Shown piece by piece: positions 7,773 through 63,743 of a stretch of 64,000 nucleotides of DNA (the stretch's first letter is position 1; each line of letters opens with the position of its first letter). The notes under the pieces are model-generated. The model searched no databases, had not been told where the DNA came from, and worked only from the letters and a program-made list of their open reading frames with translations. The position numbers were made by a program, and so were the translations under genes. This stretch comes from a virus, in IMG/VR virus record IMGVR_UViG_3300022924_000001, positions 1 through 64,000 of that record, one strand, 5' to 3'.

Positions 7773-10436
7773 TTAACTTTTGCCTCCAAATCTTTTCTTG
7801 GTTGCACGTTTTTTAGTTTTTGATACATCTGTAGTTACTAGAGGTGAAGCTAAAGCTTGTTCTTTATAAAATGTTGGCATAACCCCTAACCTCTCTATAC
7901 CATTATTACCGTATCCAAAGTTACTATACAGTTCATTAAGTCTATTAACATTATTTACCGCATTGTAATTAGTCAAATTTACAGCTTGCATTTGATTATA
8001 GTAATTTCTTGTATTTTGGTCTGTAATTGCCTTGGCCGTTAATATTTTTCGTTCGTAGTCATTCAAATCTACCCCCCTTGCATTTTCTTCCTGCATCTGA
8101 ACCTGCGCGTTAAACTGTTGCGACTGTGCATCCGAGCCCAGATTTTGCCTGTTTGTGTCTGCTATAGTTTTTGCAATATTCTGCTGGGTAATAGCGGATA
8201 AATTAGCTAGTGCTGCTGTTCTTTGAGAATCAGGCAATTGGTTTATCTGTTGCTGTGCCTGTGATTCCTGCGCCCTTAATTCTGATATTTGCTGGTCAGG
8301 TGTAAGCATAAGAGGATCAATCCTGTCATATCTTCTTGTTAATTTTAATGCACCTTCCAAACTATCAGGCATTAGTGGCATCTGATTAGGTAAAAGCAAT
8401 GTATTTAGATTATCTCTCTGTCCTTGTGTTGCTACTACGTCTTCCTGTGTATTTACAGGCTCTGTGTAAGGATTATATTGGTTAGGGATATTTCCTGCTG
8501 TAGGTAAAATGTTATTGTATACAGGTGTCTGTAAATAGTTTGCCGGGGCATTTGGAAACCTGTTCTCAATAAGTCCGTCTGCAAATTGGTTTAGGTAGAA
8601 TTCAGAGGTATCCAATCCTTTTGACTTCATTACTGATACCAATGCGTTTTTTTCTTCCGGTGTATATTGGGCGGAAGGTTTATCGGCAGGTATTCCTATT
8701 TGTGCAAATATCTCAGGGTTATTGGCTTTTATCAAATCTACGCCTTTGGCGGTAATATCCACAGCTCTTGCGTATTGTTCCGTTGATTGTGGTTGATTGG
8801 CTACTGACCAGTTTTGTAATTCTGCAACTGCGGCATTCAGGTCTTTCTCATTTCCTGTTATATTTCCATCATATCCTGCAAAACGGGCAGTACTTAAAAA
8901 GTCTTTCAAGGTCTGTCTTTTCTGCTCTTCTGTGCGTGGATGGTACCCTCCTATCTGGTAAGTAGCCTCAGTATTCTCCTCATCTGATTTAGAGGCTTCC
9001 TGTCTATTAAATACATCGTCCATCAGTGACTTTCTTGCCTCTTCCAAAGGTGTTTTCTGCTCTTCCAGTTCAGCGAGTTTTGTAGACAAAAATTCCTTAT
9101 TCAAATCTACTGTTGTAGTGGCACTTTGATTGTCTCTTACTATCTCTTCCTGCTTCTTTAGTTTTTTTATTATGTCTTCCTGTTCTTCAACCAATGCTTT
9201 TAATCCTGATTTTGCAGTAAACTTATCCAACACCTTTGCGTAGGTATCTTTGGGTCTTACTTCTAATCCAAAATTATCGGTATAGTGCTTTGCATTTTCT
9301 TTACCTACTTTTAAGTGATCTGATACAATTCTCTCTCCGGGTTCCAGATTTACATGAACTCCTCCCTTTTCGTGTGTGTCTCCTATAGCTTTTGTAATGC
9401 CTCCCAAGTTATCCTGCAAGTACTCATTATGTTCTACTTCTGCTGTTACACTAGGATCATTCTTATTTAGGGAAGTGGTGTATTCTCCAGTCAATTCTTT
9501 AACAATAGTCCCACCTTTTTGCATGAAGTTTTCCTGCGGTGATTGTAGTTGTTGCATTATACCCTCTACTAGTTGGGTTGCTTGATTTTCTTCCATGCCT
9601 GATTCTATAAGAGTCTGCAATACCTGTTGTGGGTCTGCTCCCTGCTGTAATGCCTGCACTATTTGTGCTTCTATTCCTTGTTGTCCGCCTTCCTGAAAGG
9701 ATTGTGTTGCAGGAATTTGTGCCTGTCGTACTCTTCTGTCATACTCTGTCTGTATAAAATTCTCCCTGTTACCAAGTCCTAAACCTCCTACAATATTTCT
9801 ACCTAGGCCTGTAAGTAACTTGGCTGAACTTCCTACTATACCCAAATCATTTTTATCCTTTATGGATTGTCCTAGAAAAGTGGCGGCACTTTGCAAATCT
9901 ACTCCTCCATAAGGATTGAAGTATTGTATAGGCGGTGTATATTTATTTTCAGTGTCTGTTGTCTGTGGGGTGCCTTCAAAATATAGAGGACTCCTTGTAT
10001 CATTTATAGGATAATACGGGGTTGCTGTCTGTGGTTGTTCTACTCCATAAGTCGTAGTTACATTACCCATAGTTTCAGGACTTGTTGTAGCGGTTACGGT
10101 AGGACTGTTACTATTCATATATGCATTTCCCATTCCCTGAGTTATTGGATAATTCGTAGGGGTAACTTGAGCCTGAGTAGTAGGCATTGGAGCATTGAGA
10201 ATGTTCTCAAAATTTGCATTTGCCGAGTAGTTTGGGTTAAATATCTGGTTCATACTTAAAGCATTTCCTACTCTTACAGGGTTTGCTATAGTCTGAGGAA
10301 TATCGTCTTTTTTTCTCGGTATTCTTACATTATCCCAAGTAGAGCTTCCAAAAGAGCCTAAAAAATCAGTGAATACGTTATTCGGTACTTGTGTTCCTCC
10401 CTGATATTTAGGTTTTCTATTTATCTTTTTTTTCAT
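7773..10436 (-). CDS. large virion/ejection-type protein (887 aa)
   Basis: Long ORF whose start overlaps the stop of the 774-aa gene. It has Q/P/N/T-rich low-complexity N-terminal and C-terminal parts and a basic C-terminus. It shares a PQENFMQKGGTI module with the neighbouring gene. Confidence 0.8.
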   Translation of the reverse strand: MKKKINRKPKYQGGTQVPNNVFTDFLGSFGSSTWDNVRIPRKKDDIPQTIANPVRVGNALSMNQIFNPNYSANANFENILNAPMPTTQAQVTPTNYPITQGMGNAYMNSNSPTVTATTSPETMGNVTTTYGVEQPQTATPYYPINDTRSPLYFEGTPQTTDTENKYTPPIQYFNPYGGVDLQSAATFLGQSIKDKNDLGIVGSSAKLLTGLGRNIVGGLGLGNRENFIQTEYDRRVRQAQIPATQSFQEGGQQGIEAQIVQALQQGADPQQVLQTLIESGMEENQATQLVEGIMQQLQSPQENFMQKGGTIVKELTGEYTTSLNKNDPSVTAEVEHNEYLQDNLGGITKAIGDTHEKGGVHVNLEPGERIVSDHLKVGKENAKHYTDNFGLEVRPKDTYAKVLDKFTAKSGLKALVEEQEDIIKKLKKQEEIVRDNQSATTTVDLNKEFLSTKLAELEEQKTPLEEARKSLMDDVFNRQEASKSDEENTEATYQIGGYHPRTEEQKRQTLKDFLSTARFAGYDGNITGNEKDLNAAVAELQNWSVANQPQSTEQYARAVDITAKGVDLIKANNPEIFAQIGIPADKPSAQYTPEEKNALVSVMKSKGLDTSEFYLNQFADGLIENRFPNAPANYLQTPVYNNILPTAGNIPNQYNPYTEPVNTQEDVVATQGQRDNLNTLLLPNQMPLMPDSLEGALKLTRRYDRIDPLMLTPDQQISELRAQESQAQQQINQLPDSQRTAALANLSAITQQNIAKTIADTNRQNLGSDAQSQQFNAQVQMQEENARGVDLNDYERKILTAKAITDQNTRNYYNQMQAVNLTNYNAVNNVNRLNELYSNFGYGNNGIERLGVMPTFYKEQALASPLVTTDVSKTKKRATKKRFGGKS

Positions 10437-45766: not shown

Positions 45767-46094
45767 TTGGTATGTAAATTGATTTATATTCGTTTTTAGG
45801 CCATTTATCTAAAGGGCATATTTCAGATTCCCCTGTTGGTGATACATATTTTACTTTCTTGGCTATATTACACCCGCAGCTTGGTTCCAGACATACACCT
45901 TCAAACTTCTCCGATTTAAATACGGTATCGAGTACGCGATTTAAAAACAATTTGGTTTTCTGCATGAAACTATAATTGTCAAAATTAAGGGAGTTATAGT
46001 AACATAGCTTGCATATCTCCAGTCTTTGCTTGGATATTTCTGTTTCGTTTTGGTTTACTATGCGGGAATATATCGCCTTAAATGCTTTTATCAT
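45747..46094 (-). CDS. Cys-rich (zinc-ribbon-like) protein (115 aa)
   Basis: CKLCYYN ... CLEPSCGCN ... CPLDKW. Its start overlaps the GroEL stop (TAATG). Confidence 0.55.
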   Translation of the reverse strand: MIKAFKAIYSRIVNQNETEISKQRLEICKLCYYNSLNFDNYSFMQKTKLFLNRVLDTVFKSEKFEGVCLEPSCGCNIAKKVKYVSPTGESEICPLDKWPKNEYKSIYIPNGKTNK

Positions 46095-47644
46095 TACATG
46101 AACGCTTCAGAATTATATACTATACACTCGGTAGATAAAAATGCTGTGGCTATAGAACTTGCATTCTGCAATGCATTTACAGCTATCTTGGTAGGATCTA
46201 TAATACCCTCATCAAAAAGGTTTACTATTTTCTCCGTGACAACATTATACCCCATACCATAAACATCAATATCCAGTTTATTTTCTATCTCCGCATTTTT
46301 CAATATCTGTAAATAAGGATATTCAATCGCTCTTTTAAGAACGTTTACAGCCTCATTTTCAGCATCACCTGCCAATACTTTTGCAGCATGAAGATAAGCT
46401 GTCCCTCCTCCTGCAAGATACCCTGACTCTATTGCGTTTCTTACAGCATGGTAAGCATCCTCATACCTGTCATATTTCTCTTTTATTTCTACAGCTGAAT
46501 AACCCCCTACCTTAATAACGGCAACTCCTCCTGATAATTTGGCAAGTCTCTGTTTTTGGTTGTTTTTTTCATGGCCTTCCTCTGTATTCTGGATTTGGGC
46601 TTTCAGCTGTACCTGTCTTTCCTTTATCTTATTTTTATCTCCGGCTCCCCCTACAATGGTGGTGTTTTCTTTGGCTATTGTTATTTTAGAACATTCACCA
46701 AGCATATCTTCAGTGACATCTTTCAGGGAACTGCCATCTTCTTTGGATATTACTTTACCACCTGTAAGTACTGCAATGTCTTCCAAATTATTTTGCCTTC
46801 TGTCTCCATACCCCGGCGCTTTTACTGCCACTGCCCTTAGCTGTTGGTTTCTGAAATTTGCTACAAGCGTACTTAAGGTAGTCGGGTCAATATCTTCAGC
46901 TATAATCAGCAAAGGTCGGTTTTTATTTACCGCTATGGAGCAGATATCTAATATATCCATTATGTTCTCTATGTGGTCATTATAGAGAAGTATAAAAGGG
47001 TTATCTAATTCACATAAAGCCTTTTCGAAGTTGTTTTGAAAGTAGGGTGATAGGTATCCATTATCAAAGTTCATACCCTCAACAAAATCAACCACAGTTG
47101 TATTACCGTTTGATTCTTCAATTGTAACTACACCTTCTCTGCCCACTTTAGTTATGGTATCCACAATTATCTTGGCGATATCTTTGTCACCATTTGCAGA
47201 CACCCTTCCAATCTGTAATTGTATTTTTCTATTTGTTGCCTTTTTTGACAGTTTTTTAAGTTCTGCAATTACTTTTTCGGTGGCAAGATCAATCCCCTTT
47301 TTAAGGTCAGACAAGCTTATACCTTTTTCTATGGCGGCATATCCTTCTGAAATTATAGCCTGCGTAAGAACAGTCGCTGTAGTAGTACCGTCACCCGATA
47401 CGTCATTGGTCTTCTGGGCTACGTTACGAGCCATTTCAGCCCCTATATTCTCAATTGGGTCATCTAGTACTATATCCCTAGCGATAGAGGCTCCATCTTT
47501 AGTAATTACAGTGTTGAATCCTTCCTTTTTAATTATTACATTTTTACCTCTGGCACCTAAAGTTACCTTTACTGCATTAGCAAGTTTGTCAACCCCGGCT
47601 TTTAGTTTGTCTCTGGATTCCTGTCCTGTTATTATCTGGTTCAT
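46094..47644 (-). CDS. groL: GroEL-family chaperonin (Cpn60) homolog, 516 aa
   Basis: AGVDKLANAVKVTLGARGKNVII, VSGDGTTTATVLTQAI (the conserved DGTTTATVL nucleotide-binding motif), GGGTAYLHA. Collinear with GroEL but lacks the C-terminal GGM tail. Confidence 0.9.
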   Translation of the reverse strand: MNQIITGQESRDKLKAGVDKLANAVKVTLGARGKNVIIKKEGFNTVITKDGASIARDIVLDDPIENIGAEMARNVAQKTNDVSGDGTTTATVLTQAIISEGYAAIEKGISLSDLKKGIDLATEKVIAELKKLSKKATNRKIQLQIGRVSANGDKDIAKIIVDTITKVGREGVVTIEESNGNTTVVDFVEGMNFDNGYLSPYFQNNFEKALCELDNPFILLYNDHIENIMDILDICSIAVNKNRPLLIIAEDIDPTTLSTLVANFRNQQLRAVAVKAPGYGDRRQNNLEDIAVLTGGKVISKEDGSSLKDVTEDMLGECSKITIAKENTTIVGGAGDKNKIKERQVQLKAQIQNTEEGHEKNNQKQRLAKLSGGVAVIKVGGYSAVEIKEKYDRYEDAYHAVRNAIESGYLAGGGTAYLHAAKVLAGDAENEAVNVLKRAIEYPYLQILKNAEIENKLDIDVYGMGYNVVTEKIVNLFDEGIIDPTKIAVNALQNASSIATAFLSTECIVYNSEAFM

Positions 47645-52948: not shown

Positions 52949-53932
52949 ATGGCTAAAAGTAAAGTAGACGAGGTTAAAAAACAGGGGTTGGATTCATTTA
53001 TGGATGAGATGAACAAAACCTTTGGTAAGGAAATATTTGTAAAGGATCTCAAAAACGTAACTGTAACTAAAATAGGTACCGGTAGTCTTGCACTAGATAT
53101 TGCATTGGATGGAGGGTTCCCAAAAGGAAAGATGGCAGAGGTATTTGGAATAAACCAGTCAGGTAAATCATCCTGTTGTTTTGAGACCGCAGCAAATTTT
53201 CAAAGGGATTACCCAGATGAACCAATAATACTGATTGATCTTGAGGATACTTTTACAGATGGTTATGTAAAATCATTAGGTTTAAATACAGATAAAAATT
53301 TCAGGGTCATGAAGCCTAAAACAGGAGAGCAAACTTATGAAATACTTATCAGTTTTGCTAAAAATATAGTAGGAGGCCTAATTATTTTAGACAGTTTTGC
53401 TTTACTACTACCATCAAAAGAAGATGAAGGAGATATGGGGGCAGCTCAAATGGGAAGCAGTGCAAGATTAAATTCACAGGGTCTAAGAAAGTTATTCCCT
53501 CACAGTTCGCAAAATGGCACTACAATACTATTTATAAACCAAATCCGTACAACTTTCGACATATACTCGCCTATTGCGACATCAGGCGGAAAATCCCTAC
53601 CTTTTTATAGCAGAACGCGATTAAATTTATCTAAGGTTAAAGGCGAAGATGGAGTTTCTAATGGGTGTAATATAAAACTAGAGAAAGCCACTTATGGTAA
53701 AGAGGGTACAAAAGTAAATACCTTTAGATTACTGAAGGGTAAGTTTGACAAGTTAAGGGAAATTGTAGAGTGTGGAGAGACAGCAGGGATAATAAAAAGA
53801 TCTGGCGCTTACTTTTCTTATAAAGATACCACATTAGGTCAAGGTATGACAAAAGCCAAACAAACCCTTGAAGACAATCCAGAACTTACCGAAGAATTAG
53901 AAAAAAGTATTAGGCAGCATTACGGAATATGA
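52949..53932 (+). CDS. recA: RecA-family recombinase
   Basis: GSLALDIALDGGFPKGKMAEVFGINQSGKSS parallels RecA LDIALG.GG.P.GRI.EIYGPESSGKTT (Walker A). IILDSFALL is the Walker B region. FINQIR. Confidence 0.85.
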   Translation: MAKSKVDEVKKQGLDSFMDEMNKTFGKEIFVKDLKNVTVTKIGTGSLALDIALDGGFPKGKMAEVFGINQSGKSSCCFETAANFQRDYPDEPIILIDLEDTFTDGYVKSLGLNTDKNFRVMKPKTGEQTYEILISFAKNIVGGLIILDSFALLLPSKEDEGDMGAAQMGSSARLNSQGLRKLFPHSSQNGTTILFINQIRTTFDIYSPIATSGGKSLPFYSRTRLNLSKVKGEDGVSNGCNIKLEKATYGKEGTKVNTFRLLKGKFDKLREIVECGETAGIIKRSGAYFSYKDTTLGQGMTKAKQTLEDNPELTEELEKSIRQHYGI

Positions 53933-61125: not shown

Positions 61126-61150
61126 GTAAAATTTCGCGAATAAAAAACAT

Positions 61151-61441
61151 ATGGAAAATAGAAAAACAGGCAAGACAACAAAACTAATAGATGAGGCTAT
61201 ACAGTATTTATTCAATACTGGTGAACTATATTTATTTAGAAGAGGCAAATTAGTAGAGAACAGTAAGATCCCAAGGGATACGAGATTATTTGTTGATCCC
61301 GACCATGCAAGAGAAAACAGGGCTCAAGAGGAGTTTATAACTAGGTTAGTGGGGCGTTTACGATTAGAGCATTATAACAGCGTTAATCTTTTTTCTAATG
61401 TCAGTTATGTGCATATAGAGGTTAAAAATTCCGGTGAATAA
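61151..61441 (+). CDS. hypothetical protein (96 aa) with an isolated P-loop-like TGKTT
   Basis: ORF track. NRKTGKTTKLID is Walker-A-like, but the protein is too short for a full ATPase. Confidence 0.5.
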   Translation: MENRKTGKTTKLIDEAIQYLFNTGELYLFRRGKLVENSKIPRDTRLFVDPDHARENRAQEEFITRLVGRLRLEHYNSVNLFSNVSYVHIEVKNSGE

Positions 61442-61464
61442 AAAATAATCAAAATTTTTAAACT

Positions 61465-62388
61465 ATGTCTACATATTACTACGATTGCGAATTTTTAGAA
61501 GGTAAACAGAAAGAGAGCTTTCCAATATCTCTATTTAGAAAAGAAACAAAACCTGGTATTGATTTAATCAGTATTGGACTGATTGCCGAAGACAACGAGG
61601 AGTATTATGCTATTTCAAAAGACTTTAATTTGACAGAAGCTTGGAATAGGTTTGAATGGAAAAAACAGTGGGTGCCGCTTGATAAAAATAATCAAGTTTG
61701 CAAAGACGTAAGAGTCTATTGGATCCGTGAAAATGTACTACTACCCATTTTTTATCAGTTAGCTCTTGACGATTTTCATTTAACCCACTTTAAAGACCAG
61801 TGGCTTGTTGATGGGAAAGAAGTGACTTTGGAAGTTTTTAAGTCTAACGCTAAATGGTCTTCAGATTTTAAGTGGTTCAAAAAACTTATTAAAAAATATG
61901 GCAAGACTAATGACCAAATCGCGGCGGAGATAAAAGAATTTATTTATAAAAAAGAAGATGTGTTATATAATCATGAAAGATGTTCTATGGAAGACATTGG
62001 AAGCGTAAAGAGCGATATTAATCTTTATGGTTACTATTCAGCCTATGACCACGTTGTATTCTGTTGGCTCTTTGGAAAAATGATGAATTTGCCTAATGGT
62101 TTCCCGATGTACACTAGAGACTTGAAGCAGATACTTGATGAAATAACTCTTGATTTACCGAAAGAGCTGATAAGAAAGCTTCAATGTAGTATATGTAATC
62201 ATAATTCTTTAGAGTATCTAGAAAACACTGGAGAAGCTTTTGAGTTAGAATTCAGGCTTAAAAGGATCAAAAAACATGCAGATTACCCAAAACAAGAGAA
62301 TGAGCATAACTCTTTATCCGATGCTAGGTGGAATAAAAAGCTTCATGAATTCTTAAAATCCCTACAGATCCAAATTTCCGGCGAATAA
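61465..62388 (+). CDS. DEDDh 3'-5' exo(ribo)nuclease, Rv2179c-like
   Basis: YYYDCEFLE (D, E), ISIGLIAEDNEEYYAISKDFN, YGYYSAYDHVVFCWLFG (D), HNSLSDARWN (H, D). Confidence 0.7.
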   Translation: MSTYYYDCEFLEGKQKESFPISLFRKETKPGIDLISIGLIAEDNEEYYAISKDFNLTEAWNRFEWKKQWVPLDKNNQVCKDVRVYWIRENVLLPIFYQLALDDFHLTHFKDQWLVDGKEVTLEVFKSNAKWSSDFKWFKKLIKKYGKTNDQIAAEIKEFIYKKEDVLYNHERCSMEDIGSVKSDINLYGYYSAYDHVVFCWLFGKMMNLPNGFPMYTRDLKQILDEITLDLPKELIRKLQCSICNHNSLEYLENTGEAFELEFRLKRIKKHADYPKQENEHNSLSDARWNKKLHEFLKSLQIQISGE

Positions 62389-62411
62389 AAAATACTATAA
62401 AAATAATTAAG

Positions 62412-62447
62412 AACCCTTGTATTAACTTACAGGGGTTTGTTCTTTAT
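62412..62447 (+). terminator. terminator-like hairpin ending the early operon
   Basis: AACCCTTGT-8 nt-ACAGGGGTT (one G.U) followed by the T-rich TGTTCTTTAT. Confidence 0.5.
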
Positions 62448-62703: not shown

Positions 62704-62986
62704 GTTTTTGACCGATTCCTATTTTTAAAATCCAAAATTTAATTTATTTTTTAACATAAATAATTTGCGTATGTCAAATATTGTTTCTAATCAACGTTCT
62801 CGAACTTTTGATAGTCTCATACCTTACTACCTCTTTACGTGTCTTAAAAACGCTTATAATCAATATTACACTATATTTGACGTTTACCTCACAATCCAAT
62901 TAGTTTAATACGAGGAACGCACGCGCATATACAACAATCTTTTTAAATAAAAAAATTTATTTTCACTATTTTTATTAAAATGTTGA

Positions 62987-62994
62987 CATATATT
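62987..62994 (+). promoter_or_regulatory. -7 box TATATTTG
   Basis: Matches TAnnTTTG, 45 nt before the ATG at 63040. A second TATATTTG lies at 62872-62879. Confidence 0.45.
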
Positions 62995-63039
62995 TGTAGT
63001 GTTGAAAGCAACTAAGCTACCAACTTAAATCTAAACATT

Positions 63040-63174
63040 ATGGCACTTTCAAAATTACAAAATGATAAGCTAGAATCACTTTACAATGACTACAACAACG
63101 GAGTAATTACATGTAACGAATACTTAGAGAAACAAACCTTAGTTTTAGGGTCTAAAATACTACAAAGCTCTTAA
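63040..63174 (+). CDS. hypothetical small protein (44 aa)
   Basis: Read by hand: MALSKLQNDKLESLYNDYNNGVITCNEYLEKQTLVLGSKILQSS. Confidence 0.35.
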   Translation: MALSKLQNDKLESLYNDYNNGVITCNEYLEKQTLVLGSKILQSS

Positions 63175-63175
63175 A

Positions 63176-63309
63176 CCTGCGAAATACCCTTTGGGTATCG
63201 ATACCTAGCCATTAAAGGTATCCTGATGAGTTTGGCAAGTGTGACACCACTATAACTGTCTGCTTAGCTTGCTAGTATGGATTAATCGCCGAATCAAGCC
63301 ACGAAATAC
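63176..63309 (+). ncRNA. hammerhead ribozyme candidate (predicted cleavage between C63199 and G63200)
   Basis: C-GAAA-UACCC-UUU-GGGUA-UC | GAUACC-11 nt loop-GGUAUC-CUGAUGA-G. All invariant core nucleotides are present and stems I and III are perfect. Stem II is weak locally or formed with GCCAC-GAAA at 63298-63306. Confidence 0.6.
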
Positions 63310-63563
63310 AAATAGTATAGTAGTGTTTTAATACGTGTTTAAAAACATTAGTGTTAGGCTTTCAATATGGAAATATTGGGTTAGTAAATAAGCAATTCCT
63401 GCGCGTTGGTTACGCTTGTAGAATGGATGAAACATAAATAACCTAACTAAATAGATTCGTGGTTAACGTTGGGCGCAACTCCCTAAAATATAAACGGTAT
63501 TAGTAAGTACTATTAATAAGGTTCGTAACCTTTACCGTTTGCTAACTATTAAAATATAATATT

Positions 63564-63743
63564 ATGACTATTCAAAAATTCTTTAAGGTTTTAAGCTATT
63601 ATCTTATACTTATTAATATCGGTATGTTGGTGTATGCTGTAATAAAATTAGATATAAAATTTATTTGTTTGTTTTCTTGTTTTATTGCGGTGTTTATTTT
63701 TATTAACTGGTTGTGGTCTGAACCCCTAAAATTTAAATTATGA
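63564..63743 (+). CDS. small membrane protein (59 aa)
   Basis: Read by hand: MTIQKFFKVLSYYLILINIGMLVYAVIKLDIKFICLFSCFIAVFIFINWLWSEPLKFKL, with two TM helices. Confidence 0.45.
   Translation: MTIQKFFKVLSYYLILINIGMLVYAVIKLDIKFICLFSCFIAVFIFINWLWSEPLKFKL

Follow-up and report, generated by a model that had tools for sequence, protein, structure and literature searches.

Positions 63175-63241 on the plus strand of the analysed viral DNA probably encode a type II hammerhead ribozyme located in a phage intergenic region, a reading that was given a probability of about 0.75 on the basis of sequence analysis. The window, i.e., the whole stretch of 64,000 nucleotides that was analysed (IMG/VR record IMGVR_UViG_3300022924_000001, positions 1 to 64,000), is part of a 133-kb metagenomic contig. 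The candidate is very probably a somewhat divergent addition to a well-known ribozyme class, with predicted activity. Type II hammerheads have been known from phage intergenic regions since 2011 and hundreds of them were recovered in the control scans, so that the existence of the candidate is in itself unsurprising. The first-pass annotation of this DNA rightly recognised the motif and exaggerated its novelty.

Architecture of the candidate ribozyme

From 63175 to 63199, the plus strand reads ACCUG-C(63180)-GAA(63181-83)-[A-UACCC-UUU-GGGUA-U](63184-98)-C(63199), followed from 63200 to 63241 by GAUACCU-AGCCAUUAA-AGGUAUC (63200-22)-CUGAUGA(63223-29)-G(63230)-UU-UGGC-AAGUG. All positions required of a hammerhead core are present (C3 U4 G5 A6 N7 G8 A9; G12 A13 A14; A15.1-U16.1; H17), and each core base listed in the first-pass annotation was found where it had been placed. 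Column 17 is a C, as in 148 of 150 natural examples. The G10.1-C11.1 pair that closes stem II is formed by G63230 with C63180. Stems I and III are both capped by loops (63200-22 and 63184-98, respectively), while stem II opens to the flanks, which corresponds to the type II topology. The positions of these elements are summarized in Table 1.

Stem III had been described as a hairpin of one A-U and five further base pairs, and this was borne out. Its strands are 63184-89 and 63193-98, with A63184:U63198 as the A15.1:U16.1 pair, and the ensemble pair probabilities of the hairpin range from 0.75 to 1.0. The description of stem I as a perfect hairpin also holds, but its length of 6 bp was one pair too short as U63206-A63216 pairs too; ensemble pair probabilities in this stem were 0.92-0.99. 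The nearest-neighbour energy of the core region (63160-63320) was no lower than that of shuffled sequence (z = -0.41). Small three-way junctions that depend on tertiary contacts commonly show such unremarkable overall stability.

The G-C and U.G pairs next to the core were found as annotated, but the "poor" pairing of the stem II flanks is no defect. Natural type II hammerheads usually combine a stem II of 2-4 bp with a pseudoknot between loop I and the 3' tail. Among the matches listed, distinct viral examples had a stem II of 2 bp in 24, 3 bp in 52, and 4 bp in 41 out of 119 cases. Several hammerheads of the 8-kb sequence L016 show a G-C pair, an A-U pair, and then a U.U mismatch, a pattern like the G-C, U.G, U.U of the candidate.

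While stem II is indeed open, the first-pass annotation had overlooked a GCCA/UGGC pseudoknot between loop I and the 3' tail, with a duplex energy of -6.5 kcal/mol. In most type II hammerheads, loop I pairs with the nucleotides directly following stem II over at least 4 bp (PMC3088659), and the candidate shows both traits of the type described in that study, a short stem II and a pseudoknot that reaches this length. Its start 3 nt past G10.1 is the commonest spacing, occurring in 35 of 81 natural examples among the matches listed, while its loop-side position lies 1-2 nt nearer the 5' side than the usual range. Chance alone produces 4 or more base pairs at an allowed position in 13-16% of cases, and the pseudoknot is therefore supporting and not decisive. 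Shortening a 6-bp pseudoknot to 4 bp was found to reduce the cleavage rate by ~20-fold (PMC3088659). With its weak stem II and short pseudoknot, the candidate is predicted to be a slow or condition-dependent ribozyme.

The 8-kb sequence L016 carries five type II hammerheads on its minus strand (636-578, 2569-2511, 4813-4766, 5830-5778, and 6988-6935), four of which visibly precede a gene start by no more than a few tens of nucleotides. The pseudoknot covaries among these copies, with GCUGA/UCAGC in one form and GUCCA/UGGAC in another. Approximately nine type II hammerheads each were observed in L038 and L076.

Table 1. Features of the candidate ribozyme and its surroundings (window coordinates unless a locus is named)
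Feature	Position	Strand	Remarks
Terminator-like hairpin, end of upstream transcription unit	62411..62438	+	after the exonuclease gene
Promoter-like element, TTGACA then TAtaTTTG (Bacteroidota -7 box, TAnnTTTG)	62983..62998	+	putative promoter
Upstream 44-codon orphan ORF	63040..63174	+	stop codon 5 nt before C11.1
Stem II, 5' strand (G11.2, C11.1)	63179..63180	+	C63180-G63230, G63179.U63231
Core G12 A13 A14	63181..63183	+	read from the letters; columns invariant in 150 natural examples
Stem III hairpin, A15.1-U16.1 plus UACCC/GGGUA, loop UUU	63184..63198	+	6 Watson-Crick pairs
C17 and predicted scissile bond C63199/G63200	63199..63200	+	position from the hammerhead consensus
Stem I hairpin GAUACCU/AGGUAUC, 7 bp, 9-nt loop	63200..63222	+	strands 63200-06/63216-22
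Pseudoknot, loop I side GCCA	63208..63211	+	complementary to UGGC 63233-36
Core C3-A9, CUGAUGA	63223..63229	+	read from the letters
Stem II, 3' strand (G10.1, U10.2)	63230..63231	+	read from the letters
Pseudoknot, 3'-tail side UGGC	63233..63236	+	begins 3 nt past G10.1
Non-coding stretch of 322 nt, ribozyme to next ORF (63564)	63242..63563	+	no open frame
Half-copy: CGAAAUAC, loop AAAUA, GUAU, then A	63302..63319	+	without a CUGAUGA partner
Natural U-A type II hammerheads	L151 4739-4809, L202 631-704, L207 1421-1479, L155 3904-3976		AT-rich viral contigs

Genomic setting

The contig encodes GroEL, a GroES-like protein, RecA, and an Rv2179c-like exonuclease, and its gene order resembles that of Cellulophaga phage phi17:2, a Lightbulbvirus. 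The host genome of the element is that of a Cellulophaga-phage-like (Lightbulbvirus-like) Flavobacteriia phage, and the element lies in a block of early/middle genes. Full-length GroEL (Cpn60) and RecA, resembling Cellulophaga phages phi17:2 and phi4:1, occur at 46094-47644 on the minus and 52949-53932 on the plus strand of the window, respectively, and a small ORF with a weak Cpn10 (GroES) match was seen at 2442-2690 of L013. From ~49 kb onward all genes are on the plus strand, and the ribozyme shares the strand of its neighbours.

Upstream of the element, the segment 62914-63001, which holds the promoter-like element, is 84% identical to positions 7836-7923 of L004, a contig related to the window at only ~46% protein identity. 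The AT-rich promoter-like region as a whole (62910-63005) has two copies in L004, at 7836-7923 and 7972-8019. The element at 62910-63005 is probably a conserved promoter of the Bacteroidota type used by phages, judging from these matches, while further copies of the promoter motif were not found in the window. The distance of 5 nt between the stop codon of the 44-codon ORF and the ribozyme was confirmed, with the ORF ending at 63174; natural viral type II hammerheads start at a median of 3 nt past the upstream stop among the matches listed.

The downstream side is less typical. The gap from G10.1 to the next ORF measures 333 nt against a natural median of 28 nt among the matches listed, of which only 9% have a gap of at least 300 nt. 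No hidden ORF was detected in 63230-63566, even when recoded stop codons were included, and a search for repeats in the 1.2-kb non-coding region gave nothing meaningful. The RNA following the ribozyme had been called hairpin-dense, a description that failed, with the sequence being no more structured than shuffled sequence (z = -0.30). A scan of the window for tRNA and tmRNA genes found none. Among other viral contigs, a permuted tmRNA (RF04321, 66 bits) was identified on a 67-kb contig related to the phage (L001, 42-294, plus strand) and another related contig carries a tRNA gene whose anticodon arm is interrupted by a 38-nt insertion that may be an intron (L003, 2250-2355, plus strand).

Searches for relatives of the island returned little. 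No homologues were found among phage records by blastn, and the exact pattern of core plus stem I did not occur in IMG/VR. The flanking ORFs of 44 and 59 aa gave only self-matches among 5.8 billion proteins, and the ORFs of 59 and 52 aa had no relatives in IMG/VR. In the single metagenome scan, which is described below with the models, all type II hammerheads obtained were unrelated ones. Nine IMG/VR loci and Cellulophaga phage phi17:2 have the neighbouring exonuclease gene in common, while the hammerhead is absent from them. A relative with 85% identity, present in samples ERZ27228460, SRR7968058, and JGI 3300022918, is represented only by contigs of 1-2 kb, which have another gene order and end short of the island. 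In this relative (L010, L011, and L012, compared with window 61128-62405), the 96-aa gene (61151-61441) lies directly after the exonuclease gene and not before it; a tandem copy, a rearrangement, or faulty assembly of the short contigs might account for this shift.

Model scores, chance expectation, and alternative readings

At gathering cut-offs, no Rfam model matched anywhere in the window. Under relaxed settings, Hammerhead_3 (RF00008) was the only hammerhead model returned and the remainder was noise; its score was 17 bits (E = 1.4), with the cut-off at 48.5, and its alignment of the core included an insertion of 69 nt in stem II. When the search was restricted to 63150-63262, which excludes the distal half-copy, none of the Rfam hammerhead models matched at E <= 10. 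The candidate stays below the gathering cut-off of RF02276 (37 bits), as do four clear metagenomic type II hammerheads (L014 7584-7635, L015 954-1006 and 519-584, and L017 384-435), of which the three that were re-scored with this model, from L014, L015, and L017, gave 30-35 bits. Since RF02276 leaves clear examples just under its cut-off, default Rfam annotation under-counts the type II class.

A series of own models was begun from a clean alignment of two sequences, as MAFFT alignments of hammerheads misplaced the stem gaps. The model of these two sequences (R1) gave the candidate 22.5 bits. A metagenome scan with a purine/pyrimidine-coded copy of the candidate motif yielded four type II hammerheads on unrelated GC-rich contigs, among them L016, and the models were built up from these. 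With R2, which comprises eight metagenomic type II hammerheads, the candidate reached 31.5 bits (E = 2e-6) and the next match 10.5 bits. R2 is partly circular because a pattern modelled on the candidate had served to retrieve three of its eight training sequences. For R3, at least 120 IMG/VR loci were collected with a stem III pattern of the family consensus (CGAAACGCC..GGCGUC..CUGAUGAG), R2 found 179 hammerheads in 100 of the loci listed, and the best 150 of these 179 viral hammerheads were used for training, which makes R3 far less circular than R2. This largely independent model assigned 26.9 bits to the candidate (E = 1.3e-5), with 11.6 bits for the next best match in the window. Hammerhead matches were absent from ~150 kb of related AT-rich phage DNA. 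The first-pass annotation had named the Rfam hammerhead models as one check; the curated models miss the candidate, while R2 and R3 place it far above noise.

Chance expectation was assessed with a descriptor consisting of GAA, a hairpin closed by A..U, a non-G base, a second hairpin, and CUGAUGA. On both strands of the window it matched one site only, even when the stems were relaxed to 3 bp. In 120 Mb of random sequence from an order-2 Markov model trained on the window (~940 window-equivalents), there were 89 matches at a minimum stem length of 3 bp, two when both stems had to reach 5 bp, and one when both had to reach 6 bp. The random expectation is thus ~0.002 per window for two stems of at least 5 bp. 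When C11.1/G10.1 was required in addition to both stems of at least 5 bp, no match occurred in the 120 Mb, and from these counts equally good look-alikes are expected at ~1e-4 per window or fewer. The annotated complete type II hammerhead with its predicted cut between C63199 and G63200 is accordingly backed by the descriptor, the random controls, R2, and R3.

In a rival explanation, the core letters and the two hairpins would have come together by chance or be left over from a decayed, now inactive ribozyme, the RNA would not cut itself at an appreciable rate, and the region would be an ordinary AT-rich intergenic leader. The extremely low random rate argues against this explanation, even if a rare coincidence could surface once many windows are scanned. 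A look-alike would fit a singleton without homologues in phage records, IMG/VR, and 5.8 billion proteins, the miss by the Rfam type II model, the bottom score among all compared hammerheads, and the minimal stem II and pseudoknot; it fits poorly with the gap of ~15 bits or more to the next match in both R2 and R3, and with a strand, intergenic site, stop-codon distance, and pseudoknot register that are all right for a hammerhead. For the isolated element, the nearest-neighbour structure of minimum free energy is a competitor of the active fold, which is again what a look-alike or relic might show. Taken together, this explanation is regarded as unlikely but not negligible.

Other readings retain the type II hammerhead and add to it a distal partner. 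A second copy of CGAAAUAC is present at 63302-09, as had been annotated, and the half-copy to which it belongs resembles the GAAA, stem III, and H17 of the candidate. No second complete hammerhead using 63302-19 was found in the window, either with the descriptor or with R3. The repeat could be a coincidence or the remnant of a duplicated half-ribozyme. The UGGC of the 3' tail can pair with loop I or with GCCA at 63298-301, and the two pairings are therefore mutually exclusive. On this basis, a regulated hammerhead might be imagined that serves the 5'-end processing of a phage ncRNA or leader of ~330 nt (63200-63563) and is not a simple inter-cistronic cutter, which is considered very improbable. 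The same low standing is given to its regulatory part, in which UGGC would be contested by loop I in the active state and by the distal GCCAC-GAAAUAC half-copy in an inactive or alternative state.

The first-pass annotation went further and proposed two mutually exclusive closures of the core, the second being a type III fold, with the duplicated GAAAUAC as a conformational switch. Folds of 63160-63325 were computed with and without constraints. The best fold with the type II helices had -28.3 kcal/mol, that with the type III helices -19.7 kcal/mol, and the unconstrained fold -33.7 kcal/mol. The type III alternative is thus 8.6 kcal/mol worse than type II, and neither the stable open stem III nor the score of at least 48.5 bits expected for RF00008 was found. 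Probabilities were <=0.006 for the type III stem II and ~0 for the type III stem III of 4 bp, while the own hairpin of the distal copy (A63306-U63318, 4 bp) reached ~0.8. Neither the alternative fold nor the switch held up against these values. A bistable ribozyme that closes as type II, or as type III via the distal CGAAAUAC and a GU(UU)GGC/GCCAC stem II, can draw on the existence of the 8-nt repeat, on the two partners of UGGC, and on a best, non-significant Rfam match that is of type III, but is barely credible given that an AU-rich stem III of 4 bp would have to displace a local hairpin of 6 bp, that the distal copy favours its own hairpin, that 5' to 3' transcription completes the type II fold ~70 nt ahead of the distal copy, and that closure of the type II core needs no second option.

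Predicted processing and comparison with known hammerheads

If the element is the type II hammerhead favoured here, transcription would start at the putative promoter near 62983-63010 and run through the ribozyme, ~185 nt into the new unit. The element of ~65 nt would fold on the nascent transcript, where the pseudoknot of 4 bp would lock it, and self-cleavage between C63199 and G63200 would occur cotranscriptionally, as predicted from hammerhead chemistry. The upstream product would comprise the RNA of the 44-codon ORF, with stem III as its 3'-terminal hairpin, carrying a 2',3'-cyclic phosphate. The downstream product would have a 5'-OH, begin with the hairpin of stem I, and comprise a leader of 333 nt together with the small ORFs that follow one another from 63564. 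In this way, the upstream and downstream parts of one polycistronic phage transcript would probably become independent of each other in stability and expression. An uncoupling role of this kind has been proposed, and is unproven, for many gene-flanking hammerheads in phages and prophages.

That the curated Rfam models overlook an AU-rich candidate with an AUC triplet, a minimal stem II, and an equally minimal pseudoknot shows that AT-rich (Bacteroidota) phages have been covered incompletely in ribozyme censuses. The location of the ribozyme ~185 nt past a putative promoter in a Cellulophaga-phage-like genome makes it a tractable case for effects on operon expression. The long non-coding stretch after the ribozyme is atypical and could conceal a processed RNA.

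The most conspicuous deviation of the candidate concerns positions 15.2-16.2, which are U63185-A63197 and result in an AUC triplet in place of the C15.2-G16.2 pair of the GUC form, which is present in 149 of the 150 natural examples of the R3 alignment. A scan with CGAAAU..AUC..CUGAUGAG returned mostly chance matches, and approximately a dozen clear type II hammerheads with U-A remained after structural filtering. They have 6-9 bp in stem I and 6-12 bp in stem III, several with pseudoknots. As clear type II hammerheads carry U-A, the variant is a natural one. The candidate had the lowest R3 score in comparison with 12 natural examples of the U-A type (33-48 bits).

The four U-A hammerheads of Table 1 share the topology, the U15.2-A16.2 pair, and the pseudoknot logic of the candidate. 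Stem II has 3 bp in L151, L207, and L155 and 2 bp in L202 and the candidate. The pseudoknots of L151 and L207 have 6 bp, while that of the candidate has 4 bp, and R3 scored the four at 33-47 bits compared with 26.9 for the candidate. A stem III of the form CGAAAUACC...GGUAUC is common to the candidate, L151, and L202, the latter two from loci with 22 and 39% G+C, respectively. No similarity was seen between the flanks of the window element and those of the L151, L202, L207, and L155 loci.

With RF00008 and discontinuous hammerheads with large insertions, the candidate has in common that its core letters can be threaded through the type III arrangement with an insertion of 69 nt in stem II. In contrast to RF00008, the type III stem III would have only 4 bp and the fold is thermodynamically unpopulated. 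The closest match in kind is given by the phage and prophage hammerheads of RF02276 (Perreault et al. 2011, PMC3088659), with which the candidate shares an identical catalytic core, an open stem II of 2 bp, a loop I pseudoknot, and an intergenic location on the coding strand just past a stop codon. Unlike the members of that family, it has an AUC triplet, an AU-rich stem I, and a pseudoknot of only 4 bp, it occurs as a single copy while many contigs carry several, and it scores under the Rfam reporting level.
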